The notes below the pieces were generated by a model. It was not told the DNA's origin. It saw only the letters and a list, made by a program, of their open reading frames with translations, and did not search any database. From IMG/VR virus record IMGVR_UViG_3300048929_000179, positions 21,882-85,881 of that record: a stretch of DNA of 64,000 bases. One strand, 5' to 3'. Positions within the stretch are counted from its first letter, which is position 1; the number at the start of each line of letters is the position of its first letter. Below are positions 17,616-63,787 of this stretch, in pieces. The stretch is from a virus. The position numbers and the translations under genes were made by a program.

Positions 17616-17619
17616 GGAG

Positions 17620-36588: not shown

Positions 36589-37676
36589 ATGTATAATTAT
36601 AAAGAAAGGCGCATAAATATGAAAATTAAAAATGTAATTATCGTCACAGCACTTGTGACAAGTGCTTTTTTATTTGGCAGATTTGGAAATATGCACACCA
36701 TCAATATGAATCAGGTCACAGATATTCAAGTAAATGACAACGGAGCACAGATAACCTTATTAGACGGTACAGGATACTATTGGGAAAGATGACCAAATAT
36801 CCATTTCATTGAAAAGGAGAAATATAAAATATGAGAGATTTAAAAGAAATTTATCGCAAGTATGAAGTAAAAGCTAACAGCGTAGAAGATTTTCTAAAAA
36901 GATATACGAAACCTAGTAGAAACGAACAGAGATGTGCCGATTATCAAGAAGCAAGAATCGAATCTCATACGGAAGATTTAAACAAATACGGTTATACATT
37001 TATAACTCACCACGACAGCATAACAGGCGAATGTGTTAGCTATTATGGGACTGAAAAATAACAGTCAACACCAAATTTTACGGGCTTGTATTTGTCACAG
37101 GATACAAGCCTATTTTAGTAAAAGAAAACACTATCAATCGATTATTTGACAGGAGAGATAGAATGTATAAGGGGAAAAATATAGCTAAAGAAATTGCTAA
37201 TATGAAATATATTTATCAGCTCATTGTTAATGAAGGAAAAGAGGAATACAAAGACGAGTATATTTGTAGCTTTCAAATTGTAAGAAATTATAGCATTCAA
37301 AAAATACCGAACAAATACATTGAGCTTTATAGAAGGTTAGAAGGGATCAAATGAAACTATTCTTTTACAGTGAAAGGAAAACAATAATATGAATAAAACA
37401 GCAAGAACGCCAAACCATAGCGAATGGACGGAGGAAAGATATAAAGATTTTAATCTAAGAATAGACCATTTAAAAAACCATTCAAAATATGAGTGGTTAA
37501 GAGAATACGCTGATGATGCTATTAAATGGAATGAGTGCGCAGGACATTTAATGATTAAAGCAACCGATTTTATAGAACGAATTGAGAAAATGCCACTAGA
37601 TTATATAGAAGGTTGGCTAAATGGAGAAAATCAACTTGAATGGAAACCAGAGTTTAAGCAACAGAACAGCAAGTAA
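36589..37676 (+). CDS. four small hypothetical genes (36589/36620-36792, 36831-37061, 37163-37354, 37389-37676)
   Basis: ORF track; each ends at an arm-N6-arm site. Confidence 0.7.
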
Positions 37677-37750
37677 AATCAATATTTGACACGGACTGGA
37701 AACGGTCCTTTTATTTTACATAGAAATATTAAAAATATTCAAATATCTAG

Positions 37751-37779
37751 TTGACAATCATATACCTATATGATATACT
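37751..37779 (+). promoter_or_regulatory. sigmaA promoter
   Basis: TTGACA-N17-TATACT. Confidence 0.85.
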
Positions 37780-37802
37780 AATATTATCAAAGGAGGTAAG
37801 AA

Positions 37803-39112: not shown

Positions 39113-42100
39113 ATGAATAAATTATTTGAAGTATACACAGAGAACAAAACCACAAAGGAATTAGAAGAACTAAAACATTATTATGTCACCAATAAATCGG
39201 GCTGTAATTTTGAACAAGGAGCAAGGCTATGTATTGAAAAAGAGAACGAAAATATTCTAATTGAATTAGATTTACCTACACTTGACCTTAAAGAACAACT
39301 TGACGGGAAAGGGGGAAAGGTATACATGACAGCTTACGCATACACTGGAAAGCTTGAAGATTATGATTGCGAAAATGAAATTGATAGTAAATTCTTTGTT
39401 GGAGATTTAGCAAACGCAGAACAGATAATGTTAGAGTATGCATTGTCATTATAATACTGTCAAATAGTACTTTTATAAGGAGGTAGCAAAATGGGTTATC
39501 ATACACATAAAAACAGTTTTTTCTTATATGACAAAGAGAATGAAAGAAGATGGGAGTATTTTAAAACCACGGATAAGTATTTTAGCCAATACTCCGAATA
39601 TTTTAAAAGTTGCAACAAATGGATATCACCAACAAACACAACCGACGAAATTTGTAAAGAAGACTATTACGAAGCATTGTCGATTAATACAGAAGAACTA
39701 AGAAAAGCAATATAATATATTTATCTCCAGTTTGAAGCCATTGGACAGCGTTCCAGTGGCTTTTATAGTGGGAATAAACCAATTAAATTAAACGGAGGTA
39801 ATTATCATGAAAAGAGAATATAAAGTGTTTAAAGATGCAGTTGGGAAAACATTTGTAATATGGAGTGATATGATAAGAAGATGCTTATTTGCGGGAAGCG
39901 TAGGGGAATTAAGAGAGGTTGAAGTCGGATTTTTTGAAAGAGATAAGAATCAATTAGCTAACATTATGTCAGTGGCAAAGAGATATAAATAAAGGAAAGG
40001 TTATAGGTGATATTATGATTCAGATTAAAGCACATTATGGTGATTGGAAAGAAGTTACAGCAGAACAGGCAATTGATTTTTATAAAACATTTTGCAGTGG
40101 ATCAACTGCATTAAGCCAAGAAGAAAAGGAAAAAAGTTTTAATAAAGATCATATTGATGGAGCAACAATAAAAGCCATTTATAATAATGGAAGATTTGAG
40201 CCTAAACTAGAAACAGAAGAACAAAAGAATGAAAGGATGTTTTTACATTATAAACAAAGAATTATGTCAGGTGATAGACCAATTAAAAATACAACGCGTT
40301 TCAATGTAATAGAATATCTTTGTAGCTTTCCTAAAATCAACCCATATGAAATGGCAGCCAGCATATTAAAAGAAGGTTGGACAATAAATTATGATGATTC
40401 ATCTATTTGCATAAATGAAAATGAAATTAAGCGTAGAAGAGTAGAAAAATTATTGAAATTGCAGGAGGTATAGACAATGCGAAAAGTAACTTTTGTTATA
40501 GACGATGTGGCAAGCATGAGGGAATTATATAAGGACGATTTAACAGAAGAACTAACAAAAGACAAGGAATCATTCAAGGTTATATATTCACTCATAGGCA
40601 ATAAAGATCCTGATAGATATGAACTGCATGACATGAATGGAAATAAGCTGAATGTAAACGATTTAAACGGATACCAGAGGGGTTGTATTATTAATGATTG
40701 TTTCAAATACTTTTCTGGAAAAGGTAATTATTGTTTTGAAACTGCTAAACCTTTTGGAGTTATAAGTATAACAGAAAGTGAGGTATAAACTATGTTACCA
40801 TATATTAGAAGTAATACAGGATTTTACAATCATATTGCAGAGGAATATTTTACAGTTACATTACAGGCAAAAAACAAAGAAGAGCATGAAAAGTTACTCT
40901 TTTCTTTTTGTAAAAGATGGCAAAGAGAATTGACAGATGAAAATGTGCTCGCTTATTTTGTTGAGTCTGGAGAAATGGAACCGGACATGGTAGACGAATT
41001 CAGACAGTTTTATATTGAGAATGCGGAACCATTTCAGAAAGCAATTATCAACACAAAGTTGATTATAGGGAATAAATATACCCTTGTTTACATGAATGAA
41101 TTTGGCTTTCCTGTAGCTGATAAAATCGTGTTTAAAGGCGTTTCACCTTGCCAGTATGCACAATATACGGATGCGATTAGAATGACGGCTAGAAGGGCAA
41201 GAAAGCGCAGCAATGTGTACATTAATTTCTATGATTCCAGTCTTGCAATACATGAAGGTTGGAACGACTTACCGGAAGAAATTACACATGAAAAAATAGG
41301 GGATCACTTGAAGCAATCAAAGTATAGCTGTTTTGATGCCAGATACTTTGAAGATTGTGTTAAACATTTTGGGAAGCCAGTGGTCGAGTATAGAAACTTT
41401 AAAACAAGGGAATCAGATGGAAAAGTATTTGCATAGAACAGAACACGCTCAAAAGTAAGTTTTACGGACTTATAAAACAAGGAGGTTCTACGGTGGTAAA
41501 GTATTTAATTTATGATGATAAACTAAGCACAGATAATAATGTTGTGGTAAAAGATGAAAGTAAAAATATTTTTAATGATTTGCTTGTAGATGATGAAAAT
41601 TTCAAATGGAAACTACATGCAACCAGAATGTTAAAATATGGAACATATACAAAAACTACATGGATTCAACATGGAAGGTTTAGATTTGATATTGAATATT
41701 ATTCAGATCAACAATTTTTCTACATATTTTGTAGATATGACAATAACAACAGAGAATATAATAATGGAACCAACAGGACTGTAACGCTTAATCAAATAAA
41801 AGTGCATGGTAATGATAACTTAACCGTGTATAAAGTTATTGAACAGTGGAAAGAAGACTTTGTAAATGAAATCAAAGCAATATAACACAGTCAATTTGTA
41901 ATTCTACGCAGAAAGGAAAGATATCTTATGATAACAGAAACCATTAAAAGTGGCGTGTATAAATGTTTTGATGATGAAACATTATTATTAATTATTACGG
42001 ATTTAGGAAATAATATTTATAGAGCTGTCAATAAAGATACAGACATGACGGCGGAAATAATTAGATTAGAACCAGACAAAGTATCAATGAAAAGCATCGA

Positions 42101-45100
42101 GCATAAAGTAACAGATAAATTAGGCAGAAGAAGAAAAAGTAATAAATTATTGAAAAGTGACTTAAATTGGTTGTGGTACATGTTGCATGAAAAGGGTTTT
42201 GATAAATTCAAATAACAGTCAAAAATAGATTTTATATGAGAAGAGGTAAAAATATGGCAAAATTTAATGGAAATATTTTCAGATCAGATGCGGCAAAAGA
42301 TAAAAACGAAATTCAAAAATGTTCTATATATCTTCAAGAGTGTTTATCCAACGATGATTATAAACGTCTGGAGAGTGATTTTAGAAAAAGTAATGATGAC
42401 AACATGTCGTGGTGGGAATTTGTAGTAAAGAATGTAAGTGTTGTTTATAAACACTAGAATGAAAGACAGGTTTAAAGGAGGAATAAAGAATGAGCCAACT
42501 ATGGAATTATATTATTAGCGAATTTCCAACGGCATTTGAAACAGTGTTTGCCCGTGACATGCTTGATAACATTTTAGAAGAGTCGGAAAAGATTGAAAAT
42601 ATAGCAGAAAGATGTGACTGGCTTGCTAGAATGATTCCAGAAGTCAGATCAACAGAAATAAGAGATATATTATTACGATGAAAAGCACATTTGACGGTGA
42701 AATCCACCAGAGAGAGGAATGTAATATGAAATTATTAAATAGCGACAAAGAGATTTTGAGAGAATTTGGACATGATGATAAAGACATAGAACAGATAGAA
42801 AGGGCTACGGGTAAGACGGTTTACAAGATTAATTATAAGGATAAGATATCAACCAAACATGCAATAGAGTTGCTCGGAAGAGAAACATTTTTAAGTGGTA
42901 TTTCAAGAAGCGCATTTCATTACAGCGCATTAAGAAATATTGAAAACAGCAAAAATGTTATTTCTTTTGATTCGTCAAAATTATTTGAGTAGGGGAGGTG
43001 GATAAACTATGGTTAATACAGTCAGGACTTATGATGATGCGTACAATTACGGATCAGTAACGCACAAGCGCAAATCAAAACAATTCAATAAATTTTGTTT
43101 AACCATAGGAAGCGTCTTAATTGGGCTTTCTTTTTTTATACCATACTTTCTATCAGATCAAGATGGAAACGGTGCTATAACGGCTATTACCTGGGTTGTA
43201 AGCGTGGTTCTATTCAAACAGATAGAATGGAGGAAGCTGTTTTTATGAGATTTTCGATAACTACATATACATACGGATACTGTCTTACCGATAGGGTGAC
43301 AGGAGAAAAGACATTTTGCGGTTTTAATGAACTTAACGAAACTATTTATAAACTTATGGCAGAGTAGAAAGAACAAGATTTAAACAATCAGAATGGGAGA
43401 TCAACATGAAGAATACAAAACCAGAAACATTTGTTTCAAGAGGTGTTAGATATGTAATTTATAGAACAGAGACGGCAGCTTGCATCATGACTGAAGAGGA
43501 GTATGCGGAAATGTTTGGGGATCATTGGGAAGCTAAAACAGCTTAACACGGAGGTGCGTCATATGGATCGGTATCCAGGACTAGAACAGTGTAAGGATTT
43601 TGAATTAATCCAGGCATCATTTTTACCAGAGCAGCTACGGGTTTTCGATAAACAGCTAACTAAATACCTAAACAGTCGTAAAAGGCAGAACAGTTATCCT
43701 CCTGTGGTTGAATGGTGTGTAGGGTCTATGAACACAGAACAGTTTATAGAAATGTGTGCTAATTAATAGAACAGTCAAAGAACCAAAAGATGTTTTATAG
43801 TGGAAAGAGGTAGAAGTGTATGAAAGAGAGTAAATTTAAAAACCTCATAGTGGACACATATAACAAATCAAGTGAGGGGAATATCGTGGGAATTGTTTAT
43901 GGGGCAACTAGTACATATGGATTCTCCGAATTGATAAAAATTAAAGAATTCGTAGAAGTTACTAATCCAAGTATGTTATATTTAAAATCAAAAATAACAA
44001 ATAGCGAAGTTGATATATATGAATGGGAACTGGAAGATTATAAAATAAAAAATAGCGAAAGTACAATATATATTAAAGTCAAAGGAAGAGAATTTGCAAT
44101 TATGTACTAGCCAATAAAATGTTTGACAGAGAAAATTAGGATTTAAGCTGAAAGAAAGCGTGATTGTATGAAATGTGAACATTGTAAGGCAAGCACTGAA
44201 GAACATTATGCAGAAAGTTATGAAGTGGATTGGTATTGTGCTTGTGGTGTTGATGATAATGATAGAACTGAAAATGCTAAAGGGAAATTAGGTTGTAATT
44301 TACATTATGCGGAAGTGAATAGGAAAGTAAGTCAATCTCACATTTGACAGTGAGTATAAGGAGGAATCATGAGTAAAAGTTTATATGAGAAATTTGCAAA
44401 TATTAAACAGCCAAAAGTGTTAGAGATTACAAGAACTTTTGGAGATGCTGTATCGGTCATCAAAGATATGAAACTAACTTTGTCGGCTGAATATGTTGAC
44501 TGGGCAGAAGAGATTATTTCACGGGTATATAATAGAACGTATGAGGAAGTCAGAGATGCGGTTGACGGTAAGGAGGCGTGGATTAATATAGGTGAAATGT
44601 ATAAGTGATAAGTAAAAGCTGTATTTGATGAACAGGAGATAAACACATGGTTGATTTTAAAGAACAGATCCCGAAGCGTGTGGCACCGGAAGTCAGAGAA
44701 AGATGTAATAATTAGTGGCGCAGCTTTAATACAGCATGATATAATAAGAAGAAAACGAAAAGGACGGGTTATGATATGCCATTATTAATAATACTCATTT
44801 GTGCAGTGATTTATATGGCCTGGGACGGAGATCAGAGGAACCGCAAGTCATCGAAAAGAAATCGTGATTTTGTCAAGTCTCACAATGAATTGTATAAGGA
44901 TATGCCCGATATGCAGATTAAGTAAATGTTAGATTTTATAGAAAATAAAATGGAAAGGGATGGTTAAGAATGAGCAAATATAAGTGGGCAGATATAACAA
45001 CATACTCACGAGGAGACAAAGAGAGGACTCCTAGGGTATTATCTCTTAATTTAATGGAATTTAATTGCGAGATAATAGTACATAGACATATTTATTTTCC

Positions 45101-48100
45101 TGATACATGGGTGCTTAGTTGTAAAAGCATTGGGGTAGATAAGCGTGAATTGACTACAAACGACTTGGAAGAAGCAAAAAATAAGGCTATAGAACTGGTC
45201 TTGAATGGATTAGAAAAAAGACGCGTTGAAATTGAAGCAACGATCGCAGAAATTAAAAGTCTTTAAAAACTATATTTGACGGAGGATATGAAAATGGCAT
45301 TTAATAACGATAAACATGAAATCAAAGGAAGACTAGAAAAGATTGGAGCCAAGGTCGAAGTAAACGAAGCAGAAAAACAGTTAATTGTAGATGATAAATA
45401 TGTTATTAATTATAATAGCGGATACTATCGCAGAATTGAAGATAAGAAGTCTATGGGCAGAGGAACTACTGATTTCGTAGACATGATCGCACGAGAAAAC
45501 AAATTAAAATGATTCTTTGATGAGGAGGTAGGTTATTATGACAATAGATCTGGCAAAGAAAGTAAAAATAGGAGATAAGGTATCATCAAAAGATGGCTTT
45601 CTATTTACAATAGAAGAAATCAGAGAAAAAAGTGATGCTGCAAACATAAATCATTACCTTGAATTTGTTGGAACTACAGATGGAGGATTGAGGGTTTTTT
45701 ATATTCATAAAAATTTAAAAAATCGAATATGGTAGGAGGATAAATAGCATGAGATATTCAGATTATGATAAAAGTATATATACTTCAGAAGATATTATTA
45801 AATATAAAAGGCTGTTCGAAAAAGATATTGCAGATAAACAGAAAGAATTATCTGAATTTGTTGATAGAGCCAATGAACGGATTAAGTGGATAGAAGAATG
45901 TGAAATCAATAATGATTATTCAATTCTTGGAAGACTTTATAAAGACGGAAGAAATAAAAATGTTTTATTAATTATTAGATATAAAGATGGAACTCAAAGA
46001 GACGAAAGATATTCTTTTAATAAAATAGCAGAAGCAAAAAAGAAATTATCAGAACTTCAAGAAAAGCACTCAAATGTTGATTGGTCAAAATTTGAACTTG
46101 ATATATAATAAAAACATCTCTTCAGGGAGGAATTGGAAAGTATTGCATGATAAGAATAAAAAAGCGTTCAGAGTTATTAGGAGCAGAAAAATTTGGAAGC
46201 TGTGCTAGCTGTGGCTGTAGAACAGATGAGAAAGAGATTTTTAAGTTGGAGTTTGAAGATCTTGCAAACAGCAAAAGTAGTTTGAGTTTGTGCTCGGAAT
46301 GCATAATGATATTAAAAGAAACCATATAAAAGGATTATTTTATAGGGGGGTAAACATGGGAGATATAAGAGAAGAAGGAAAATTGTTAAAAGCAGTACAT
46401 AACGAAAAGATAAAGAAAACGCCTGACAGGATCGAATATGCTATTAAACAGTTTGAAGAAAATGGCGTTGAGTACCGGTTGCTCAATGGGTCAACAGGTC
46501 ACTTTCATTGTTGGAGAAAACGGGACGAATATCTTTATCAGTATTGGGCTGGAACCGGCAAGATTTTAGGACATGATGATATAAGAGGAATTAACTCACT
46601 AATTGAAGCGTTATTGAAATGATTATTTGATGAAGCTTTGTTGAAACGATAATTCATGGAGGAGCTTACATGAAGATTGTGTTGAAAAGTTATATGGATT
46701 TAATATCGATAAATTATACAGACATAATACAGAAAGAAAGTAAATACAAAGAGGCGAATAAGCGTCTATGTGAATACGGGAAACCATTAACTAGGCAAGG
46801 GTGGAAAGAACTTACATTAGAGGGAAATTGTTAGAAGCAGAAGTTTTTGTTAGGTGTGATTAGCGCTTATGTACTACGTGAATACAAAGGAGAAAATATA
46901 TGTATGATACTAAATTATTAGATAAGTTTGATAGATTAAAAAATGATATATTAAACAGAAAAGAAGAGCATAAACAAAGTTCTGAATGTGTTATTATAGA
47001 TTGTCCTATATGTAGTTGCTTTGAGAAAGAATATCGTTCCGAATGCCATAGGCAAGCTCAATTTTTCAAGCAAGATTCAGGGTGGGGTGCATTTTAATTC
47101 CGATTTTTATGTATATAGTATTGGTCTATAAAATATAAGATTGATATGGAGGAATAAAATAATGATGATACTAAAAGGTGACGTTGGAAAATCAGTTGTA
47201 GTTGATAGATTGTCAAAATATACAGATACTCAAATATTTGGATACTCAGACGATATACCGACTTACATTGATGGGATAACTTATGTTTTAAGAAAAGATG
47301 TATCAATAGAATTATTTTGTAATTACTTTGAAGAAAATCTACTAAAAAACGAATATACAGAAATGCTTATTATTTACACCAATTTAAATGAAGATGAAGT
47401 TGGAATGATATGCAATCGTATTAATATGTTAGAAGAGAATGGTTGTGTAGGGTATTCGATTGTTACATGTAAATAATATGACGTTGATGTAGAGGTGTGA
47501 ATAATGAAGAGTGAAACATGGGACGGTTTGACAAGAAAATTTATTAATACTCCAAAAGAAATGGTTAATTTCATAAACGATATTGATGAGGTATGCAAGA
47601 AATATGGATTGTCAATATCACATGAAGATGGTCATGGAGCATTTATAATAGAAGAATATGATGAACACAATATTAAGTGGCTTCGAGATGCAACTAAGGG
47701 TTATAGGAAGGAAGATGTATTATGAGCAACAAAATGTTTTTAAAACCAAAGAATCCATTTCTTCTATTGAGCCAAGATGTAGATGGTGAGGTGAATTATT
47801 CTTGGTTAGGATCAGAAGAAGAATTGCAGGAAGTTGCAAAAGAATTATTAGAGTACGGAAATAAAGTAATTAATGCAATAGAAATAGGAAGCTCAAGAGA
47901 TATCATAATAAAGAAGCTATACGATGCAGGTGATTTTATCGAGGAGATTAACTCGGCATATGAAACAGCTAAAAACAATGGGCTTGACAGTATAATCTTG
48001 ATTGTGGCTACAGATTGCGAAATGGAATACAGTATAAATGATACAGAGAATGGATTCCAGTGTGATGAATTTGATTGTTACTTTGATGATTTAGACCAGA

Positions 48101-49363: not shown

Positions 49364-49378
49364 TAAAAGGAGGTTGCG

Positions 49379-50314: not shown

Positions 50315-50318
50315 TAGA

Positions 50319-50490: not shown

Positions 50491-50907
50491 ATGCACAATG
50501 AAAATAGAATTGACAATGATTATAGGAGGACACCTACTCCGTTAGGAGGGGAAATTTGGGATGCGTATATTCCAAAAACAGAAGATAGAATTAAGAGCAG
50601 CAAGCAGTATGGGCGAAGACCAGTTCTAGTTATGTCTAATGATACGTTTAATAAATTTTCTTCACAAGTAAATATTTATCCAATTTCATCAAAAATAAAT
50701 AAAATGTCACCAGTACATGTATATATGCCATCAGACGATCACAATGGGTTAAAAAGTGATAGCGTTTTACTTGTAGAAAGCCCTGATTCTATTCCAAAAG
50801 ATTGTTTGTATCGAAAAATTGGAGAGGTTAAAGATGGGAATGTTATAAATCGTATATGTGATGCAATCAAACTACAATTTTCATTTGCATTTTCCTGTGC
50901 GGTATAG
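50491..50907 (+). CDS. PemK/MazF-family endoribonuclease-like protein (no adjacent antitoxin gene)
   Basis: GEIWDA...QYGRRPVLVMSNDTFN...YPISS...GLKSDSVLL...LYRKIG. Confidence 0.85.
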   Translation: MHNENRIDNDYRRTPTPLGGEIWDAYIPKTEDRIKSSKQYGRRPVLVMSNDTFNKFSSQVNIYPISSKINKMSPVHVYMPSDDHNGLKSDSVLLVESPDSIPKDCLYRKIGEVKDGNVINRICDAIKLQFSFAFSCAV

Positions 50908-50977
50908 TTTGAAATAAAATTGACCTTTTTTTATTATTGTGATATTATATAGTACATAAGATAATAGGAGGTTAAAT

Positions 50978-52024: not shown

Positions 52025-52085
52025 GCGACAATTTGTTGCCGTTTTAATAGATTGAAATAAAATTAAGAGTGTTCGAAAAAATCCA

Positions 52086-52114
52086 TTGACACTGGGAGAA
52101 AATGGGGCTATAAT
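52086..52114 (+). promoter_or_regulatory. consensus sigmaA promoter
   Basis: TTGACA-N17-TATAAT, box copy 52052-52063 upstream. Confidence 0.85.
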
Positions 52115-52155
52115 GAGATCAATGAAGAACAGACGTTCGAAAATGGAGGGCAACT

Positions 52156-52398
52156 ATGGTGATCATGAGAGAGGGTAGTTATAGTGAGATTATTCATGAA
52201 GTTGAGAATTATAATATTGAAGACATAGCCTTAAAATGTTTGTTCAAATGTGGAGGTAGGATTGATGGGAATATGGACACCATAGGAAGTATACCCGAAA
52301 ATGGAATATTGGAAGTGCTGCTTACAGAAGATGAAAAGGTTATTCATTACGCTGTTACATATCCAGATAAATACATAGAAATAAAGATTATAAAATAA
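52156..52398 (+). CDS. hypothetical protein
   Basis: ORF track. Confidence 0.6.
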   Translation: MVIMREGSYSEIIHEVENYNIEDIALKCLFKCGGRIDGNMDTIGSIPENGILEVLLTEDEKVIHYAVTYPDKYIEIKIIK

Positions 52399-52514
52399 TC
52401 CCCAGTACAAACGTGTTGGCGCACTCCTGGGGATCTAAACAGACCTCAAACAGTTATGATGCAACGTGACGTTGCAAAGACATAAGACATGTTCAAGAAC
52501 GCACCGATTGGCGC
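52395..52514 (-). ncRNA. predicted ~120-nt small RNA
   Basis: Minus-strand TTGACT-N17-TATAAT at 52549-52521; ends in CCCCAG...CTGGGG hairpin followed by ATTATTTT. Confidence 0.6.
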
Positions 52515-52582
52515 TATTAAATTATAGCAAATCTTGTAACATTAGTCAATGTATAGTTCCCAGTAAACAGATAAACAAATAT

Positions 52583-52654
52583 AGGGCTGCCGCCAATCGG
52601 AGAGACACAGGACGTTAGCTCCTGTATTTGTTGGTTCAAATCCAACTAGCCCAG
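52583..52654 (+). tRNA. degenerate tRNA-Gln-like gene with TTA in the anticodon position
   Basis: GGGCTG/TAGCCC acceptor, CAGGA-CGTTAGC-TCCTG anticodon arm, GTTGG-TTCAAAT-CCAAC T-arm; A1:A72, G33, broken D-stem, no CCA. Confidence 0.7.
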
Positions 52655-52746
52655 TTAATAGGTTGAAATAAAATTGAACAAATGAGAAAAATTAAAATAT
52701 GTAGGAACAGGACGTAGAATTCGTATTTGATGGAGAAGCGCGGATA

Positions 52747-53787
52747 TTGGGAAGGGGGGTAAAATTTATGATTATAAGTCACTCAAGAGGTCATGAAATA
52801 TATTATAACGGGAAAGAGTGGAGATATCGTGACACAAATGAAATTTGTAATGATGACAGGCCGTGTAAAAAATGTGGTAGATATCCAACAGTAGAAGGAT
52901 ATGATGCTTGCTTGGGTCATGTCTTCGGGGCAAAGAGTGCTTGTTGTGGACATGGAGTAGAAAACGGTTATGTTGTCAGATGATTTATGTAAATTAAAAA
53001 ACAAATGTACGTCAATCTCGGATTTGACGGTGAAAATAGGAGGATTAAAAATGTTAAAAAGTATAAAGACAATTAAGTGTCCAGTATGTGGTTGTACGGA
53101 AATAGTGGAAGAAAGTATTAAAACATCAAATTATAACAGACCAGAAGTATTACAGCATTGTAGCGGTGCAAGATGGGAATGCAGAAAATTCTTGTGTGGT
53201 TATAGAATTCAGTATGAGCCAAATTTTTCAAAAGAAGTTGAAAGTAATAATTCGGAATGTTGTTATAATCCAGAAGTAATTGCAAGAAAAGAAAAAGAGA
53301 AAAAAGACAAGAGAGATATTATTAACTTATTGGAAAGCAATAATATTTCACAATTAATAATTGATAGAGTTAAAATGCACTGTTTATATTAAGCAGGTAA
53401 AATACTTATTTAATTATATAGAAGGGATAAAATATGAAAGAAAAAATTAGATGTAAAGATTGTAAATATTATGACAATTATACTATGCTTTGTAGATTTT
53501 ACGAGCCACAAGATAAAAATCACCGAGATAATACTTGTAAGTATGCAGAAGCTAAAGAAATTAATATTAAAAATAAATAAATTGCTGATTTTACTTATAA
53601 GAAAGGAAACACTATGGGAGTTTGTTTAAAATGTAAAAGAGATATATCAGAAGTAAGTGACGGAGATTTAAGAAGTGAATATTGTGAGCAAGCTGATTAT
53701 TGTGGCATGGAAGGTTTAACTGAAAATCAGCAATTACTGGTAGAAGGAAAGCTATGCGAAGAGTGTTATGAAGATGAATTGGAGTAG
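52747..53787 (+). CDS. four small Cys-rich hypothetical genes
   Basis: ORF track 52747-52983 and 53050-53392 plus two short RBS-led ORFs (near 53434-53580 and 53613-53787); CxxC motifs. Confidence 0.6.
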
Positions 53788-53829
53788 AAGTCTGGTTTGA
53801 CAGTGAAAAATAAAAGAGGAGGATTTTGA

Positions 53830-54633
53830 ATGGGAAATGGTTTAAAGGTAACAGGGAAGCAGACGTTTATGGGGATTGAAATTCCGGTAATTGAAGGCGG
53901 CTTTGGTGATGACAAGAGGGTCACTATAATTCCAGTAATCGTAGAAACTCATGGTGTTAGAGCTAAAGTTGTAAACCAATCAATTAACAGATTAATCGAT
54001 AAAGAAAGAATGAGGGAGAATGTAGATTATATTGACTTATTTTCTACACCAGAACTCAAGGTCACTGCTGGTGACCTCGGATTAATTACCAGTAACGGTC
54101 AGAAAAACGCATTTATCTTATCCGAACGAGGTTATTCTAAACTCATTAAGTATATGGACGACGATGAATCATGGGAAATAATGGATAAATTCATTGATGA
54201 ATATTTTGAAATGAGAATTGCGATCAAGGAATCGTTAAGCCAGGAAGATCTTGTACTATTAAGAATATGTAAGTCGTCATCTCCGGAGGAAACCGCGCTG
54301 GCTGTGAATCAGTATAGAGAAGTAGTGACTCAGCCATTGTTGGAGACAATCGAAAAACAGAAACCTATGGCTGCTTTAGCAGAACTTAGAATTGATAAGA
54401 AAGGTTGTTATTCCCTCACTGATGTTACATCTACTCTGGGACTTAAAAGAGGGCAGATTACTAGATGGGCTAAGAGCAATGGATTTATACATAAGAAATT
54501 ACAAGAAGTAAATCAGTCGGGAACACAGTTATTTAAAGTTTACTCTTCAGACGGCATACATAACTGTATTGGAATTAAAGAAGAAGGACTACAAGAAATC
54601 AACCGCAGACTAGAAGAAATTAAATCTTGTTAA
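53830..54633 (+). CDS. antirepressor-like protein (ORF6N-type N-terminus, KilAC/ANT-like C-terminus)
   Basis: GKQTFMGIEIPVIEGGFG...FILSERGYSKLIK; QKPMAALAE...CYSLTDV. Confidence 0.8.
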   Translation: MGNGLKVTGKQTFMGIEIPVIEGGFGDDKRVTIIPVIVETHGVRAKVVNQSINRLIDKERMRENVDYIDLFSTPELKVTAGDLGLITSNGQKNAFILSERGYSKLIKYMDDDESWEIMDKFIDEYFEMRIAIKESLSQEDLVLLRICKSSSPEETALAVNQYREVVTQPLLETIEKQKPMAALAELRIDKKGCYSLTDVTSTLGLKRGQITRWAKSNGFIHKKLQEVNQSGTQLFKVYSSDGIHNCIGIKEEGLQEINRRLEEIKSC

Positions 54634-54676
54634 AACTCTTATTTGATAGAGAAGAAAGGTAGAGAGGTAAATAAAT

Positions 54677-56184
54677 TTGGCAAGATACCATGAAGGAATA
54701 AGATATCATGAAGACGAAATTGTTAAGCATAAAATCAGCTTAGATGAATTGAGATTTTTTGATGATCTTCAAAAAGAATTAAATACTCAAGATCATGTTG
54801 GTCAGGCTGATCCGAGGTTTTGGGTTATTAAAGGAACGGAAAGGATTTATCGCGTAGACGATGCGGATGGGTTTGAATTATATGACCCTGATTGCTGTGA
54901 TACTCTTGCTGAGGATACAAGAGGTATATGTGAATACATGAACGAAAATCTATTGCAGGATATTAATAACAAGAGACTAGAAGGGGAGGAGTTTACTGTT
55001 GAGTTTGAAGAGGGATTATTTGGTTCTGACAAAATTGTTGTAACGTGGAATGATGGTGGAGATGAAGAATACCAGAAGCGAGAAGAACTAACTGACATTG
55101 ATGAAATTAAAACCTGGTTAGATGAACAGGGATATAATTACGAAGTCATTTCATATAAGATTATTCCTAAAATATATGAGAATACAATGTTTCTCACCCA
55201 GAAAGATGCGGAAGATCATTTAAGGTCTAATGATTATCATTATTCGGAAGACGCCCACACCTATGCTATGACAGCATGGAGGAGTTCAAGAGTTGAGATG
55301 TTAATAAAGATTTTGCAAGGTGTAGATTGGAAAGTGTTTTATTGTGAATGAAATCCCAATTTGACGGAGATATGAAAGGAAAAATTAAATGATTAGAAGT
55401 GATTGGACGGTAACGGAATCTTCCGCAAGACCTGCTGGTAGTCCAGATAGATGTTTTTATTGCGGTAGGTTGTTGGGAGAACGGCATAAAGAGGATTGCG
55501 TGATAAGATCTAAGACTGTGGTTGTTGATTTTACTATTAGAACCGTGTTGGAGGTTCCAGAACATTGGGATAATGAACAAATTGATTTTCATTATAACGA
55601 TGGAACGTGGTGTGCAGATAATTTATTAAATGAGTTAGAGCGGAGAACTGAAAATGTAAGATGCTTATGTGACATAACTGAAGCTAAATACATAAAAGAA
55701 GCAAACAGAAAAGATGAAGAGGATTATGGCGTGTCGTTTGTAAATAGGTGTGAAAGCTGAAAATTAGAATAGAAAGGAAAATACTATGGGACTAGATTTG
55801 AGAGCTAGTGGATATCCGAGCGAGGAACTACATATTGGATATATAGGTTTTGGTATTTTGAGGTGTCAAATTGCAAAATCTTATAATCAAGAACTGGGTG
55901 AAATATACGAAAAACCATATAAGGGTTTTGGTTATACGTATTCCGAGAGTGAAATTGATAGATACAATCAATTATGTGATGACGATTTAGATTTATTATT
56001 AAATCATTCAGATTGCGAAGGCAAGCTAACATATTCTGAATGCCGAAAGATTTCGATAGCATTAAATAAATTTGAGTTTAAATATCCCGATGAATGGAGA
56101 CAGGATTATAAGAGAAAGTTTTATGTTCTCAAAGATATGATTGATTGGTGTAGCAAAAATAGAAAAACTTTATGGTTTAGATAA
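54677..56184 (+). CDS. three hypothetical genes (54677-55351, 55389-55760, 55786-56184)
   Basis: ORF track; N6 sites at 54631, 55349, 56190. Confidence 0.7.
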
Positions 56185-56224
56185 CACCGTAAATTTTATA
56201 TTTGATAGAAAGTTGAGGTAAATT

Positions 56225-57256: not shown

Positions 57257-58607
57257 TATAGATATTCCAAATGATGTAGATTTCATTCTACGGCAATTAA
57301 ATACATTGGGGCATAAAGCCTATATTGTAGGAGGCTGTGTGAGAGATGCATTGTTAGGCGAGGAACCGCATGATTGGGACATTTGTACCTCAGCTATCCC
57401 AGATCAAGTTATGACAGTATTCTGTAATGAAAGAATAATAACCACTGGATTAAAACACGGAACTATAACGCTTTTGATTAATGGAAATCCATATGAGATA
57501 ACAACATTTAGAATTGATGGAAAGTATACAGATAATAGAAGACCAGACAATGTAAACTTTACAAGTTGTATTTTAGATGATTTAAAAAGAAGAGATTTTA
57601 CTATTAATGCTATGGCATTTAATTTCAATGAGGGATTGATTGATCCGTTTAATGGAAAGGTGGATTTACAAAATAATCTACTGAGATGTGTTGGAAATCC
57701 AAATGACAGATTTGAAGAAGACGCTCTTAGAATATTGAGAGCTATGAGATTTGCCATAAAGTATAACTTGGATTTAGATGACGAGACTTATGAAGCAACG
57801 ATTACAAACAAAAATGGGCTGAAGAATATTTCAAAGGAAAGAATAGCGTCCGAACTAGAGAAAATGTTATCGAGTGGAAATAGTGTAAAAGATATTTTTA
57901 AATCTTGTGCAGATATTGTATCCATTATTATTCCAGAGATGGAACATTGCATAGGGTTTGAACAAAATAATAAATTTCACAAACACAATGTCTATGAACA
58001 CATTCTGTCAGTAGTTGATTTTTGTGAAACTAACGATTTTGTAATCAAAATGGCAGCGTTGCTCCATGACATAGGTAAACCTTTGTCGTACACAGAAGAT
58101 AATGAAGGTTTTGGACATTTCTATGGACACCCTGAGATTAGCTGGGAGATTAGCAAAGAGGTGCTTAGTAAAAGATTAAGGATTTCAAATGAGCAATATG
58201 AAGAGATTCTGCTTTTAGTTAAATATCATGATATGGATTTAGCAACTTCTCGAAAATCCGTAAAAAGAGCGTTAAATAAATTGGGAGAATCTACACTTAG
58301 AAAATGGATTATTCTTAAATTGGCAGACAGGAAAGACCATATTGGATTTTCAGAGGAAGAAATTCGTGATGATTTAGAATGTATTGAAGGGGTATTAAAC
58401 GATATTATCTCTTCTCAGGACTGTTTTTTAATAAAAGATCTTTCAGTAAATGGTAGTGATCTTATTAATATTGGATATAAACAAGGCAAAGATATCGGAA
58501 TTGTTTTAAATTTGCTATTGCAGACGGTGATTGATGGTTGTGATAATAAAAAAGATATACTTATTGGAATTGCTGAGTCTATGAAACCCAGTAAAATCAA
58601 AGATTGA
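57246..58607 (+). CDS. cca: CCA tRNA nucleotidyltransferase with HD domain
   Basis: VGGCVRD...DWDICT, DLKRRDFTINAMA, RFEEDALRILRAMRF, SKERI, LLHDIGK. Confidence 0.95.
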   Translation: MVFNIDIPNDVDFILRQLNTLGHKAYIVGGCVRDALLGEEPHDWDICTSAIPDQVMTVFCNERIITTGLKHGTITLLINGNPYEITTFRIDGKYTDNRRPDNVNFTSCILDDLKRRDFTINAMAFNFNEGLIDPFNGKVDLQNNLLRCVGNPNDRFEEDALRILRAMRFAIKYNLDLDDETYEATITNKNGLKNISKERIASELEKMLSSGNSVKDIFKSCADIVSIIIPEMEHCIGFEQNNKFHKHNVYEHILSVVDFCETNDFVIKMAALLHDIGKPLSYTEDNEGFGHFYGHPEISWEISKEVLSKRLRISNEQYEEILLLVKYHDMDLATSRKSVKRALNKLGESTLRKWIILKLADRKDHIGFSEEEIRDDLECIEGVLNDIISSQDCFLIKDLSVNGSDLINIGYKQGKDIGIVLNLLLQTVIDGCDNKKDILIGIAESMKPSKIKD

Positions 58608-58628
58608 CGGAGAAAAGGAAGTGATTAA

Positions 58629-61600
58629 ATGAAACAGAGATTTAAGAAAAAGAATTATGTGAAATACGCATCTGGTCAATTTGAGCTATTAAACGTAGAT
58701 AAAGATAGCATTGTGATGTTTAGATTTGACCCAAACAAATATACGTATGTTCAGGTATATGATACTTATAAATTAATTAAACGTGTCATTGAAAAGCATG
58801 GAGACAACGATTTACTCGCAGTGCCAAGTGATGTTTCTTTAAAGTTATTTGATAGAAAACAACTGATCAATTTAAGGAATCACATAAACGATGTATTGGA
58901 GGGTACCAGTGGAAAGAACCTGCATTAAGGGTGGAATTAAGATCGCCATACCAAAAGGAGAAGATCTGCGGAAATGTCCAAGATGTAAAGGACTGTTGGT
59001 AGATGCAGTAATACAGAATAAAAAAGGGGTGATATTATTTCAACGTATATTACAGGATATGAAACAGAACCGAAATTTTTAGAAATTGCATTCATGGGAT
59101 ATAATCCAAAATTAACAGGCAATTTATTTAAGTGGTTTTGTGAAAACAATAAAGAAGAAATAGAGGCTTGTAGGCATGGGAGCTGGAATTCAATTGCCAT
59201 TTTTAAAGACGGAACTAAAGTTACAACCATAAACAGTACATCGCACATAAGGGGTGAAAGGTTTGATCAATTAATACTATGTGATGATGAACGATGGGAA
59301 ATTTATGGCAAACGCTATGACGACATTAGTCTTCTACGATTTAATTGTATGTTTATTACAAATGTGCCAGATGAATTTCAGATTTTAGAATACTTGTATG
59401 ATAAGAATGTTGATGAATAAAGTTTTAGACAGTAAAACAAATATTTGATGCTAAATTAGAATTTTGAGAACGTAAAATAGAATGTAAACTATTAAATTAT
59501 GAGAAAGGGTTAGATTATGAAGAGGTTGACGAGAAGAAGTAGGGTTGGAGAATCACTTCCAGTAAAACATCTAAATTTGATGTATATGGATACTACAAGT
59601 GAAGATACATTAACAGAAATTCTTGAATCATTGGCAGAGTATGAAGAGAAAAACGCACTAAAGCCCATTGAAGACTGGCATGAAGATTATGGTGACTGTT
59701 TATGGTGGAGTTTTCCAATAGAGGAACCGCCATATTGCGGGAATCCTCTGGACTGCGATTTCCCAAACAGCGTAACACATTTCACAAGGTTATTTATTCC
59801 AGAAAAGTTATGTTCAAAATAAACACCGTAAATCGAAAATTTGACTGAGAAGGGGAATTGATATGAAACTTGAAAGCATTACGTTTATATTGGAGAATTG
59901 CGATTCAATCACAATAGACGGAAGATATATTGATAGTTTCCACATAGAAGATGCTAGAACTTCTATATTCGGGTTTAACGGAAACAATGTAAGAGAAACA
60001 GAAACAATACATCATTTTGCAGTAAATATATGTGCAGGAGCAAACGTTGAGAGATACGCATTTGGATTACAACGACCCGAAATGGGAGATGAGAGAGTGT
60101 TTAATAGATTGTTGGAATATGACGACATCACCCAAGTTGAGTTGAATTTAGTTTCGAATTCCAAATGTGACAATCGTAAATCAGAGGGGGTGCATTATCA
60201 TTACGACTTACACTGGGTGGGAGATGATGAAAATAATAATGCAGCTCAAAAATCTTACCTAAGCAAAACTGGGAACTTATACATACTCGTAGATGAGAAT
60301 AGAAATATTCGTGATTATTTTCCGATCAGCGACATTGAAGATGGTTGTGTTTTGGATTGCGCGAGTCTTTAATAAAAATCTTTAATAGTTTGAAATAAAA
60401 TGGTTGACTTTGATATTTAATAGGAGTAATATATAAATATAGATTGAAATAAAATTTAGCAAACTTGAAATTACTTTAAGAAAGAAGGTGTAATATGAAA
60501 GAAATGGTTATTAAAATACCACTCACTACAAGTGATACAAAAAGAGACGTAGAAGAATTAATACTGGTTGCTTTAAGGGAGTTTGGAGATATGTTTTATT
60601 CTGTGGAAGAAGTCACAGTTGATGGAGAAAAGGTGTTTGGGACTAAAAATCCGAATGGGTTTAAAAGAGAATTTTTTAGATCTTAAATTTAAATTCCTGT
60701 AAATGCAAGATTTGATGGAGAAACAAAGTATGAATAAGCGGATCGTTAAGAAGAAATTCAAAATGCGCCAAAGGCAATTTTGTCATGTAAGCTATGAGTA
60801 TGAACATGGATTTACTACGGATAAGTATTCAGAGCCATATCAGTGTCCCAAATGTGGTTGGAATTCTTTAGATGCAGATGAAGATTTAAATATGGGCAAA
60901 ATGCTCTGGAGTAGTGGTGGATTTTATGATTATGAATTTGAGGTTGAGTATAAGTGTCCTTGCTGCAATACGGTGTTTAGTTATGTTGATGGCGCATGAT
61001 TGAAATGAGAAGTGAGGTGAAATGTTATTAATATTTTCAAGAAACTTGGTGGAAAAACAAAGAAACTGATTGAACCAGAAGTGGCAACGTTTCAAAAGAA
61101 AAAGGCTATTTTTACAACGGTCGATGGATCGGAGCATTATAGATATCTCAGGACATCGCTACTACTTTGTTCTTATGAAAAATATGTGATGATTTCCATT
61201 AAAGAGGATGGGTATATAACAGATTATGATGGTGTAGTGTATCCGCTTCAGAATGTTTTGTCGATAAAATGGGAGCTTGTTGAAGAAATACATAAAAAAG
61301 GCGAATATGAACCTATGTTCAAAGTTTGGTTTAGTAAGAATGAAATTGATAAAATGGAGGATTGGATATGAAAATTTATTTAAGATTAATTAAACCTGTT
61401 TTCGGATTAGATTGTGTTGACTTTGAGTTTCATGATGTGGCCTCAATTTCAAACGGGACATATCTGGAGATTCGGGATAGGGTAAGTACTCAGCTTGAAT
61501 TTAAGTGTCGACTTGATAATATTGATAGTTTTGTGAAGGAGGAATAAAAATGTTAATTCTTACATTAAAAGACATCGTGGGATTAATTGCCCTTGGGCTG

Positions 61601-63752
61601 TTCTTGATTGTGGTATTAATGTATGGCGTAGGCTATTTGTTTAGATCAATTAAAATGAAGATTAATAGATTATTTAATAAAAAGGAGAAAAAATAATGAG
61701 TGAACAGATTAGAGATTATATCTCACTAAAGCCAATTGCGGAGAGATTTAAAGATGTGGCATCAACCATTTCAGATGAAGAAATCAAGTCATTAATCAAA
61801 GAAGAGCTTAGAGAGCAAATACATAAACAGGTTGAATTTGGATCTACAATTGCCGAGTGGGTGGAGACTATGTTGGAAGGTGATGATATGTGCGAACTAG
61901 TCAGAGAAAGCATGGTAAGTAGCATTAAAAATAAATTCAAGTAAAAGGGAAATTTTATGGGAAAGGATATAAAACAATGAGCATTGCTTTTAATTGGTTC
62001 AAGAATTACGTTATAGTATCAGACAACTGTCATTGTGGACTAGGTGAATACACTGAATATTCATTAGAATGCATAGACAGTGATTCAACCTCTTTCAGCG
62101 CAGGTAACGTAATTGAACTCGATAATATCTTTGAAAAATATCTCAATATCAACATTCCGGTCATTAGTACAAATAATGTTACAGAAGACTATAAGCCAGA
62201 TTTAATAGAACCAAAAAGGTTATCTGAATTGTGTAAGTATTTATTGAAAAGACACAGCTTAGAATTAGGAGATTTAAGAGATAGGGTTGAGTGGATTAAA
62301 AAGATATCAGATGAGGGATACTACGTTGGATATGAATCTGGATATTAGCAAAAATGGAGGTATAAATGACAGTCGATAAAGAAAAAGTTGCAGAATTAAT
62401 TGAACTATATGCAAAAGCACATGAATTGGCAGTTACATGTGGTAGTGAATACATATATCAGAGTGACAGAGCGCAGGAAGACGCATTGGATCTAGTAGCG
62501 GATATTTTTGATGAAGCAGTAGTAATATAACCTGTTGGCGCAGGAAAACAAGACTTTGAATCTTATAAAATTCCAAACAAAATAGTATGTCAAAGAGTCA
62601 GTCAAATGTGGATTCTAACCAGAAACGAAAGAAGGTGAAACGAATAGAGGGAATACACGTATTTAATCAAATAGAGATATTAGCATTGCCATCTTGGTAT
62701 TTTTGGGTAGTGTTTGGTGTTGGTGCACCAATTTTTACAATTGGATTAACTGTATTTGATAAGAGTAAACATAATTTATTAAAAGTAATTGGTTTTATTG
62801 TTGGTATTTTAGCAGGAACTTCAATATATGTCTTTGGATCTGGTTGGCAAATGTTCAAGCAACCAACTGGAAAATATGAATATACGGTTTCTATTGATGA
62901 TACAAAAATACATATGCTTGAGTTCAATGAAAAATATGAAATTGTGAATAAAAATGGAGAACTTTGGATTATAAAAGACAAGTAGATTATATCTAAAAGT
63001 GTATCAATCTGTGGTTTGACAGAGATTGAAAGAGAGGAAGATTATGTCAGAATTATTAAAAGATATTGCTAGTAATCATGAAAAATTACATAGGATTCAA
63101 ATGATCCAGGTGTTGACAGAATCTATTGCAAGTTACGTAAAAGATATAGTAGTAGCAGTAGAAGAAGATTTTGATGAGACAGAAGATTTCGAAGACGCGG
63201 TAACTGGAGCAATTTTGAGAAGAGTGGATCAAGATCTAGAGACATTAAAACGATACCTGTAGAATTTTAATTTGACAGTGAAATATTTAATAGAAAGGAG
63301 CAAAAATGTTTGATACGTCAAAAGTTTATGACCAGAGGGTAACAAATGAAATAACTAATGTTTTTAAGGTTCCAGATAAATATGACGTATATCACCACAA
63401 TAAAAATGATGATATTGACAGATTGAAATTTTACATAGAAAATTCCGAAAGTCTTAGCGACTACACAATATGGATGGATATTTTGTATCCAATAACAAAG
63501 CAAATCGGAGAAAAGGTTTCAAATTATATCACTAAATACTACAAAGGAGAGCAACATTTATTAAAAATTGAAGTTAATGATCCTGAATATTCAGTAGCGT
63601 TATCTATGCCAAAAACAAGTTCATCACTTAAAGTCATAGGGGACACTATAAGAGATATGTTTAATATTAATAACAATGTAATGATAAATCATAATATTTT
63701 TGCAGGTGATTACACTATCGCGATATTTTTGTACGATAGAATATCAGAGTAG
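58629..63752 (+). CDS. array of about 15 small early genes of unknown function (one Zn finger at 60703, one membrane protein at 62587)
   Basis: Plus-strand ORF-track entries with RBSs; N6 sites at many junctions. Confidence 0.7.
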
Positions 63753-63787
63753 AATCGGAATTTTATAGAGAAAAGGAGAACAAATAA

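Follow-up and report, generated by a model that had tools for sequence, protein, structure and literature searches.

Conserved two-armed sites as position-specific linkers between apparently exchangeable gene cassettes in an SPbeta-like phage

Why should one short two-armed sequence, with a different centre each time, recur at junction after junction between the small genes of a large phage? The question is raised by IMG/VR virus record IMGVR_UViG_3300048929_000179, a genome of 119,956 bp with 34% G+C (G000 below), of which a stretch of 64,000 nucleotides was analysed (the window, genome positions 21882-85881; sites are given in window positions, those of relatives in the relatives' own numbering). 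G000 is an SPbeta-like phage of 120 kb, whose kin at the protein level are Clostridium phage c-st, Enterocloster phages and Bacillus SPbeta; a megablast search of a phage collection gave no match. According to our own heuristic gene calls, the leftward arm of the window carries terminase and portal genes and the rightward arm, from about 36.8 kb onward, many small genes. An initial annotation had noticed in the rightward arm a 16-bp site of two 5-bp arms around a 6-bp spacer (arm-N6-arm), and had proposed a recombinase-assembled array of accessory genes. We compared G000 with two relatives from IMG/VR, each examined over its whole length, G001 (123 kb) and G002 (126 kb), and we analysed a second lineage of two genomes, SPbeta (NC_001884) and Goe12 (MT601273). 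The comparison indicates that the sites are conserved, position-specific linkers between exchangeable gene cassettes.

The arm-N6-arm sequence is present at all 34 positions initially listed. Their alignment and information profile revealed a longer directional motif, G-T[ACG]AAW-N5-A-TTT[GT]A-YRGWGAA, whose arms have a symmetric consensus (G-TMAAW / WTTKA-Y). A position weight matrix (PWM) trained on 33 of the matched sites recovered about 20 additional ones. Over the whole 120-kb genome, 43 plus-strand and 11 minus-strand matches score at least 14 bits, against 0.8 and 0.5 expected from order-2 Markov simulations, and 49 and 16 score at least 12 bits, against 2.2 and 1.3 expected; this enrichment is stronger than first reported. 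Two of the listed sites are weak (36793, 7.4 bits; 46109, below 10 bits), and five in the same range had been missed (37134, 42679, 46327, 47129 and 48870). The spacing is strict: the pattern T[ACG]AA[AT]-Nk-TTT[GT]A[CT][AG] has 30 copies at k=6, compared with 0-4 for each other k between 2 and 11. The array runs past the window to about genome position 118 kb. In all, about 50 gene junctions of the genome bear a two-armed site. Within G000 all spacers differ (46/46), as had been noted. The idea that an AT-rich sequence with its stop codons and ribosome-binding sites generates such a recurrence incidentally would suit the 34% G+C, the stop codon often found in the left arm and the purine-rich right flank, which resembles a ribosome-binding site. 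Its probability is next to nil: it is ruled out by a roughly 40- to 50-fold excess over the Markov simulations, by enrichment at N6 only, and by spacers that are conserved and collinear between genomes.

Plus-strand sites of at least 14 bits are nearly all intergenic. On both arms of the window the sites share the orientation of the genes, as at 29436(-), upstream of the leftward gene 27929-29332. Gaps of 30-79 nt between genes hold a site in 28 of 49 cases, gaps below 15 nt in none, and past the right arm the distance to the next start codon is mostly 13-42 nt. The upstream stop codon occupies motif positions 0-2, at the start of the left arm, in 14 cases; the first triplet of the left arm is TAA at 21 sites, TGA at 6, TAG at 5 and TCA at 11. 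The initial distinction of two arm types, with A-A and B-B hybrids as recombination scars, is not needed and was rejected: the left arm varies with the stop codon in use, and orthologous sites do not keep the same variant. Sites 37065, 37674 and 2153(-) lie between a stop codon and the hairpin of a directly following terminator. No site occurs from 49128 to 52714, confirming that the block of recombinase, PemK and MrpR genes is free of them; the leftward structural arm, believed to be free as well, carries co-oriented minus-strand copies at 29436, 24012, 17791, 6267 and 2153. A degenerate linker at 43766-43820 has both arms around a 13-nt centre (CAG-TCAAA-gaaccaaaagatg-TTTTA-TAGTGGAAAG); its G002 counterpart, at 72018, is a normal N6 site with spacer gaagtc.

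Is the site read as DNA or as a folded strand? The two arms of one site are no more complementary to each other than arms paired across sites (in G000, 5.13 against 5.19, p=0.68; in SPbeta, 7.33 against 7.48, p=0.80), the commonest arm pair, TAAAA/TTTGA, is mismatched, and no Rfam family was found. We thus rejected an RNA or DNA hairpin, in line with the initial argument against an RNA stem. Symmetry of the consensus, a fixed spacing and the lack of covariation point to a protein that reads the arms, and a protein site is likelier than a hairpin for this element. A fixed 6-bp centre between inverted arms is also found in the core sites of tyrosine recombinases (lox, FRT and dif, 6-8 bp). The initial suggestion of such an architecture fits the symmetric arms, the strict centre and the lack of hairpin covariation; the degenerate left arm fits it less well. 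The sites of host factors (IHF, ComK, TnrA, CodY and similar) were rejected because their spacing does not fit, and a host-factor origin is unlikely given that the arms vary among phage lineages.

The element could instead act in the mRNA, as a processing site, for example for the PemK/MazF-like RNase encoded at 50491-50907, or as a ribosome-retention signal for re-initiation. The motif is indeed strand-specific, often has the stop codon in its left arm, is followed about 15 nt downstream by a Shine-Dalgarno-like GGAG or GGTG, and has a PemK-like gene inside its array. We nevertheless consider this improbable: besides the missing hairpin covariation and Rfam family, SPbeta has like sites with no PemK gene annotated in its yopM-yopR immunity block, the sites that precede terminators have no downstream gene to serve, and a generic RNase or ribosome signal leaves the unique, conserved centres unexplained.

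These centres are what ties each site to its position. G002 bears the same motif (54 plus-strand matches of at least 12 bits), and for 37 of the 46 G000 sites it has a twin with exactly the same spacer, all 37 of them collinear (longest increasing run 37; shuffled maximum 13); a looser threshold gives 44 exact matches, 44/44 collinear. The spacers are unique within each of the two genomes. The more distant G001 has seven spacers in common with G000. As orthologous pairs were picked by spacer identity, our tests are the number and collinearity of exact matches and a comparison with fourfold-degenerate sites, not the profile within the spacer. Equal-length orthologues in the array are 61% identical at fourfold-degenerate sites (69% genome-wide), which predicts 5% intact 6-nt spacers, whereas 80% are observed (binomial P ~6e-39). 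The centres are thus constrained or continually homogenised, which is not explained by a spacer-blind operator. Site-specific conservation is asymmetric and covers positions 4 to about +23 (spacer, right arm and YRGWGAA); the left arm is conserved no better than between unrelated sites and belongs with the stop codon of the upstream gene. The linkers are listed below, with PWM scores in bits; "same" means an identical 6-nt spacer in the named relative, "new" a site absent from the initial list, and X2 is a metagenome run whose contigs match the window.

37065-37088 (+), linker TCAAC-accaaa-TTTTA, 16.8 bits; G002 65804, 5/6 of the spacer; then terminator hairpin 37082-37111
37134-37157 (+), linker, cgatta, 18.5 bits; same G002 66605, G001 60657; new
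37352-37375 (+), linker, ctattc, 18.2 bits; same G002 67149, G001 60936
37674-37697 (+), linker, tcaata, 21.1 bits; same G002 67745; then terminator hairpin 37693-37708
39460-39483 (+), linker, tagtac, 16.0 bits; same G002 69449
41449-41472 (+), linker, agtaag, 11.9 bits; same G002 70151; isolated BLASTN match 41442-41475
41891-41914 (+), linker, ttgtaa, 21.2 bits; same G002 70403, G001 63478
42219-42242 (+), linker, aataga, 14.7 bits; same G001 63706
42460-42483 (+), linker, gacagg, 13.8 bits; right arm TTTAA, weaker
42679-42702 (+), linker, agcaca, 22.6 bits; same G002 71034, G001 64123; new
44111-44134 (+), linker, aaaatg, 20.3 bits
44332-44355 (+), linker, ctcaca, 23.8 bits; same G002 73986
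44613-44636 (+), linker, gctgta, 20.4 bits; G002 74561, 5/6 of the spacer
44923-44946 (+), linker, gttaga, 20.5 bits; same G002 75080
45264-45287 (+), linker, actata, 22.0 bits; same G002 75346
45505-45528 (+), linker, tgattc, 17.4 bits; same G002 76472
46327-46350 (+), linker, ggatta, 16.6 bits; same G002 76684; X2 contig match begins here; new
46615-46638 (+), linker, tgatta, 12.3 bits; same G001 72195
47129-47152 (+), weak linker, tataag, right arm ATTGA, 10.8 bits; same G002 77857; X2 contig resumes at 47128; new
48870-48893 (+), linker, gataac, 18.9 bits; same G002 78128; X2 boundaries 48868 and 48895; new
49104-49127 (+), linker, gtgaca, 27.1 bits; isolated BLASTN match 49101-49127, flanks unrelated
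52715-52738 (+), linker, ttcgta, 25.1 bits; same G002 82100
53012-53035 (+), linker, ctcgga, 25.7 bits; same G002 82734; isolated BLASTN match 53006-53050
53578-53601 (+), linker, tgctga, 12.4 bits; same G002 82957
53785-53808 (+), linker, gtctgg, 24.3 bits; same G002 83193
54631-54654 (+), linker, ctctta, 21.5 bits; same G002 84026, left arm differs
55349-55372 (+), linker, tcccaa, 22.8 bits; same G002 84437
56190-56213 (+), linker, tttata, 20.6 bits; same G002 85133
58592-58615 (+), linker, tcaaag, 25.6 bits; same G002 85554; isolated BLASTN match 58586-58623
59433-59456 (+), linker, caaata, 20.6 bits; same G002 86761
59829-59852 (+), linker, cgaaaa, 25.3 bits; same G002 87292; isolated BLASTN match 59828-59862
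60700-60723 (+), linker, gcaaga, 27.7 bits; same G002 89444; X2 contig match ends at 60723
61942-61965 (+), linker, gggaaa, 23.1 bits; same G002 90683
63004-63027 (+), linker, ctgtgg, 19.0 bits
63260-63283 (+), linker, ttttaa, 22.8 bits; right arm and downstream gene as at G002 92385, where the spacer is another; homology starts at 63270
63750-63773 (+), linker, tcggaa, 22.6 bits; same G002 92875; X2 contig matches only 63744-63809
29413-29436 (-), linker TAAAA-caagac-TTTGA, 21.7 bits; same G002 58047(-); upstream of leftward gene 27929-29332
17768-17791 (-), linker, 16.5 bits; same G002 49199(-); isolated BLASTN match 17763-17799; just past the stop of the 341-amino-acid recombinase gene
2130-2153 (-), linker, 20.5 bits; same G002 31860(-); overlaps the stop of gene 2138-3166; then a terminator-like hairpin

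Between the conserved sites the genes change. BLASTN comparison of G000 with G002 showed a highly mosaic array, with isolated matches of 27-45 bp that fall exactly on sites and have unrelated flanks (49101-49127, 53006-53050, 58586-58623, 59828-59862 and 60682-60723). The majority of genes between sites are without a BLASTP homologue in the other phage. Among 40 intervals between consecutive sites common to both genomes, 22 gave no tblastx match, 14 are partly and 4 mostly homologous, and their lengths differ; 32 of 41 common sites have no tblastx homology within 240 nt on either side. Past linker 49104, G000 has an extra small open reading frame (ORF) where in G002 the recombinase gene follows directly. 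This ORF (49109-49363), absent from G002, stands right behind the conserved right flank of the linker, which ends in TTTGACGCAGAAA, and before the ribosome-binding site of the recombinase gene, with no second linker copy. The sites thus bound exchangeable cassettes, as first proposed, and relatives keep sites, spacers and order while genes are replaced; the integron-like part of that proposal fails, because the spacer stays with the position and not with the cassette. The gene at G000 60730-60999 is 81% identical to G001 83254-83550 (reverse complement) behind a different linker centre (gcaaga vs tgaata); the two are alike only from the right flank onward, which shows that among more distant relatives one cassette can be preceded by different linkers.

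Metagenome data were also searched; no RNA run was found to contain the window. In Logan contigs from one wastewater and one bovine-gut metagenome, matched pieces begin or end at 46327, 47128, 48868/48895, 49101 and 60699/60723, and one 4.6-kb contig matches the window only at 63744-63809. A degenerate motif search of viral contigs returned single chance matches only. The 19-mer of one linker matched G002 among viral contigs and, among genome contigs, two records (57% and 44% G+C) without a site array, about the chance expectation.

The same elements are found in SPbeta, whose early region holds 27 copies of TAAAA-N6-TTTTA against 0-2 at other spacings. Their consensus, TYTRRA-TAAAA-N6-TTTTA-WWYARA, resembles an 11-6-11 layout. 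Exactly the same spacer was found in Goe12 for 24 of 32 SPbeta sites, all collinear, and one or both flanks are often unrelated. The junction elements are unmarked in the displayed GenBank features of both genomes, and no description of them was found in the literature searched. Non-homologous anti-Gabija genes have been reported at "the same locus" in SPbeta-like phages (bioRxiv 10.1101/2023.05.01.538930), which is the outcome expected from position-specific linkers.

What, then, are the sites for? They might be promoters for a phage-specific transcription machine, either the YonO-like RNA polymerase (24799-27936) or a sigma-like factor, with RGWGAA initially transcribed. They are strictly co-oriented with genes, 13-42 nt before start codons, and with about 25 bp are similar in length to single-subunit polymerase promoters; the promoter of the YonO-type polymerase that the phage encodes is unknown (PMC5467207). 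Against this, the aligned flanks contain no conserved -35/-10 elements, promoter-like matches are not enriched at sites (114 vs 97.9), the sites do not overlap promoter-like hexamers, and several lead straight into terminators, not genes. The only mapped YonO start region, SPbeta yonN-yonK, is without the motif (best 1.7 bits), and YonO transcribes the late operon of SPbeta, not early arrays (PMC5467207). G002 keeps the motif though its YonO-like protein is only 22% identical, and a promoter does not need a unique, conserved 6-bp centre. A promoter function has therefore little probability, and a YonO promoter was rejected as the leading explanation on the mapped start region. The polymerase gene itself, 24799-27936(-), reads as two ORFs, 26272-27936, with a 554-aa product that matches YonO-type single-chain RNA polymerases, and 24799-25941. 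The first part is 89% identical in G001; the G002 counterpart is a single 997-aa ORF with only the 22% identity given above, so the polymerase itself was swapped between relatives.

Nor do the sites coincide with the operator of the master repressor. In SPbeta this operator, SPBRE, is bound by the recombinase-fold repressor MrpR, for which ChAP-seq (chromatin affinity purification followed by sequencing) found only ten SPBRE promoters (PMC10516654); in phi3T, a monomer of the repressor binds an asymmetric box of 26 bp (bioRxiv 10.1101/2025.11.27.690993). SPBRE reads CAAATACAAAWAATATGTATA and flanks sigma-A promoters in SPbeta. Since SPBRE and the phi3T box are asymmetric sequences different from the arm-N6-arm site, we rejected the latter as the operator. 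G000 has an asymmetric box of its own, (TAATAGA)TTGAAATAAAATTG, in about 12 copies, which resembles the SroF box of phi3T. It stands directly upstream of the -35 element TTGACA and often again just past the -10 element, a layout like that of SPBRE at yonX:

50319-50361, 50909-50948, 52052-52114, 52663-52676 and 60390-60457 (copies 60390/60444), plus strand, TTGAAATAAAATTG boxes
32119-32047 (copies 32119/32060), 29480-29467 and 33446-33433, minus strand, TTGAAATAAAATTG boxes

The box is likely to be the operator of a 348-aa MrpR-like protein (50978-52024), and the question left by the initial annotation, whether the arm-N6-arm site might itself be an operator, is thereby answered for the master repressor by a separate asymmetric box. 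The 348-aa protein resembles the MrpR family by language-model features only; it has no Pfam or BLASTP match, and a search of the viral set with it gave none. An exact-protein look-up likewise returned nothing. BLASTP found no similarity to SPbeta YopR, with which it is equated by position together with the language-model features.

The arms may still bind another regulatory or silencing protein, acting as a roadblock like stoperators, as a nucleoid-structuring protein, or perhaps as a YopP-like recombinase fold without catalysis; exchange would then be a by-product, ordinary or mediated by a single-strand annealing protein, of short homology over the 20-27 bp linkers. Many intergenic copies in a single orientation relative to transcription would suit such a role, as would the directional extension YRGWGAA with conservation to +23 and the three sites between stop codon and terminator (37065, 37674 and 2153(-)). 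In this phage family, repressors have arisen from recombinase-fold proteins (PMC10516654; bioRxiv 10.1101/2025.11.27.690993), lysogens express yopP (bioRxiv 10.1101/2021.11.22.469490), SPbeta encodes a Sak4-like annealing protein (yorG, by annotation), and shuffling at conserved regulatory motifs has a precedent in the promoter-early stem-loops (PeSLs) of T4-like phages (PMC2839356, PMC4122927). Mosaic blocks that end at sites only 2-fold more often than at gene boundaries also agree with short homology. On the other side, a spacer-blind protein gives no reason for centres conserved far above synonymous sites and also above the degenerate arm positions 1 and 14, another box serves as operator of the master repressor, MrpR was mapped by ChAP-seq to the ten SPBRE promoters only (PMC10516654), and 16-27 bp is near the lower limit for homologous exchange. 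We regard this reading, in any of its variants, as the main rival to recombinase-driven exchange, a serious possibility about which we remain doubtful.

Arbitrary centres, all different and yet conserved, are expected if two DNA partners must match there. Such partner matching fits the overlap region of a tyrosine-recombinase site or a very short patch of homology with the centre as its core. Two genes of the window are candidates for the enzyme:

49379-50314, plus strand, 311-aa tyrosine-recombinase-family gene inside the array; Pfam Phage_integrase 2.4e-08, PHROG integrase
17799-18824, minus strand, 341-aa tyrosine recombinase with a SAM-like N-domain; Pfam Phage_integrase 4.4e-15, R..HxxR..H..Y in alignment A1

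The 311-aa protein has R85, H189-x-x-R192, H219 and Y228 and is 76% identical in G002; a PDB sequence search with it returned nothing. Both Phage_integrase-domain proteins keep R, HxxR, H and Y, and the catalytic lysine is unplaced. The array recombinase, initially described as catalytically intact, keeps candidates for four of the catalytic residues (R..HxxR..Y228). Array recombinase genes with active-site motifs are present in G000, G002 and G001; the one in G001, whose arms differ from those of G000, is very divergent and occupies the equivalent place. The order recombinase-like gene (49379-50314), PemK-like gene (50491-50907), 348-aa gene (50978-52024) and, later, antirepressor gene (53830-54633) mirrors yopP-yopQ-yopR ... 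yoqD of SPbeta. The 311-aa gene thus occupies the position of yopP, an equivalence that is positional, and the 341-aa gene that of yomM; the latter could be a second candidate exchange enzyme or else the prophage integrase or a resolvase.

We tentatively favour an exchange of cassettes in register that is initiated by a protein at the linkers, most likely the array's own recombinase, without claiming even confidence in it. A phage-encoded protein would recognise the two generic arms around a 6-bp centre that is unique to its junction and common to related phages at that junction. In a cell shared by related phages or prophages, DNA exchange would begin at the arms and be completed only between equal centres, that is, at the same junction, the 6-bp centre serving as overlap region as in lox, FRT and dif. 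Whole cassettes of ribosome-binding site, one or more ORFs and stop codon would be swapped in register, and a genome would be spared exchange among its own different junctions, with the gene deletions that this would bring. From the sequence we infer protein binding, the identity of the protein and the exchange chemistry; catalysis by the internal recombinase 49379-50314 is plausible, possibly together with 17799-18824. The wider reading is a natural multi-site recombinase-mediated cassette exchange throughout SPbeta-like phages, SPbeta included, by a YopP- or YomM-like recombinase, in which about 50 sites with common arms and a 6-bp overlap of their own let accessory and anti-defence genes be swapped between co-resident relatives at the same junction only; we consider it less likely than not.

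Several observations weigh against recombinase-driven exchange. The 311-aa protein has no BLASTP similarity to SPbeta YopP and only about 57 residues ahead of its catalytic domain; in the rough alignment A1, YopP and YomM have lysine at the expected Arg-II; and yopP is transcribed in lysogens along with the repressor, which would suit a silencing role (bioRxiv 10.1101/2021.11.22.469490). Breakpoints in relatives had been predicted to fall at the sites. Isolated matches and contig ends do so, but BLAST blocks end at sites in 23 of 72 cases against 12.4 for gene boundaries in general, about 2-fold, so that a good many of the mosaic joints are not at sites. In the source sample, the joints of contigs fall at other repeats or are short-sided, and contigs cannot show rare forms. 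The asymmetric conservation, from position 4 to +23 with the left arm excluded, is not required by a pure core-site model and suggests a directional role connected with transcription. A spacer mutation should moreover cost the phage little directly, so that strong conservation needs an indirect force. Neither exchange model alone explains direct selection on spacers; overwriting of a mutated linker when a neighbouring cassette is replaced via the next compatible linkers is a plausible indirect force.

Two neighbouring features deserve mention. The PemK/MazF-like toxin gene 50491-50907 (Pfam 3.4e-16), flanked by the recombinase-like gene and the MrpR-like gene, shares 93% identity with its G002 counterpart, has no adjoining antitoxin ORF in our gene calls, and gave no match in a metagenome scan with its protein. 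Two tRNA genes (17531-17704(-), Rfam 44 and 51 bits) lie between an amidase/lysin gene and the 341-aa recombinase gene.

The linkers would explain structurally why SPbeta-like phages hold unrelated anti-defence genes at "dedicated loci" (bioRxiv 10.1101/2023.05.01.538930), and they offer a rule for locating accessory and counter-defence cassettes in large Firmicute phages. Because SPbeta has the same elements, the mechanism is directly testable by Bacillus subtilis genetics, and an explanation may also emerge for what YopP and YomM, both orphan recombinases, do. If exchange is site-specific, the array would supply dozens of mutually incompatible recombination sites ready for use; if multi-site cassette exchange is true, a gene pool would be shuffled in register without gene deletion within a genome.

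How do the linkers compare with known systems? The stoperators of Cluster A mycobacteriophages (PMC9283540, PMC6550527) are likewise dozens of short intergenic copies, near stop or start codons and oriented with transcription. They are copies of an asymmetric 13-bp operator of the immunity repressor, whereas the G000 site is two-armed, with a variable but conserved centre, and the repressor box is different. SPBRE and its reader MrpR (SroF) belong to the same phage family and are gene-oriented repeats read by a recombinase-fold protein (PMC10516654; bioRxiv 10.1101/2025.11.27.690993); the SPBRE and phi3T boxes are asymmetric sequences that a monomer binds, present in about 10 copies and placed at sigma-A promoters, while the arm-N6-arm site is symmetric, present in about 50 copies and not at promoters. 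Comparable too are the PeSLs of T4-like phages (Arbiol et al. 2010, PMC2839356; Comeau et al. 2014, PMC4122927), short motifs at junctions of small accessory ORFs in hyperplastic regions, at the boundaries of insertions, deletions and replacements between relatives, for which modular shuffling was proposed. The G000 sites, too, mark replacement and indel boundaries between related phages, with block ends enriched only about 2-fold. PeSLs consist of a sigma-70 promoter and a terminator hairpin, and recombine with each other to give mini-circles; the G000 sites have neither promoter pattern nor hairpin covariation, and with unique centres conserved by position their exchange would be confined to the same junction.

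Integron arrays share the one-directional units of ribosome-binding site, ORF and site next to a tyrosine recombinase gene. An attC site has 57-141 bp, is used as a folded single strand and travels with its cassette, in contrast to the 16-27 bp of the G000 sites, which have no fold constraint and are bound to position. In the core sites of tyrosine recombinases, identity of the central region between partners governs exchange. The loxP/Cre system of P1, FRT/Flp, dif/XerCD and the pdif modules of Acinetobacter plasmids have, as here, inverted arms around a centre of 6-8 bp; recombinase genes lie in the G000 array, and the SPbeta site, about 11-6-11, is like dif. The linkers differ from lox, FRT and dif in that there are about 50 per genome, each with its own centre, all in one orientation, and in that the degenerate left arm doubles as a stop codon. 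In pdif modules the orientation of the sites alternates (C/D, D/C), unlike in the array. Botstein's modular theory of phage evolution predicted conserved "linker" sequences between exchangeable modules, and to our knowledge such linkers have rarely been found so far. In these phages they occur systematically: each genome has about 50, which have in common an architecture of the protein-site type and bear, at each position, a specific "address".

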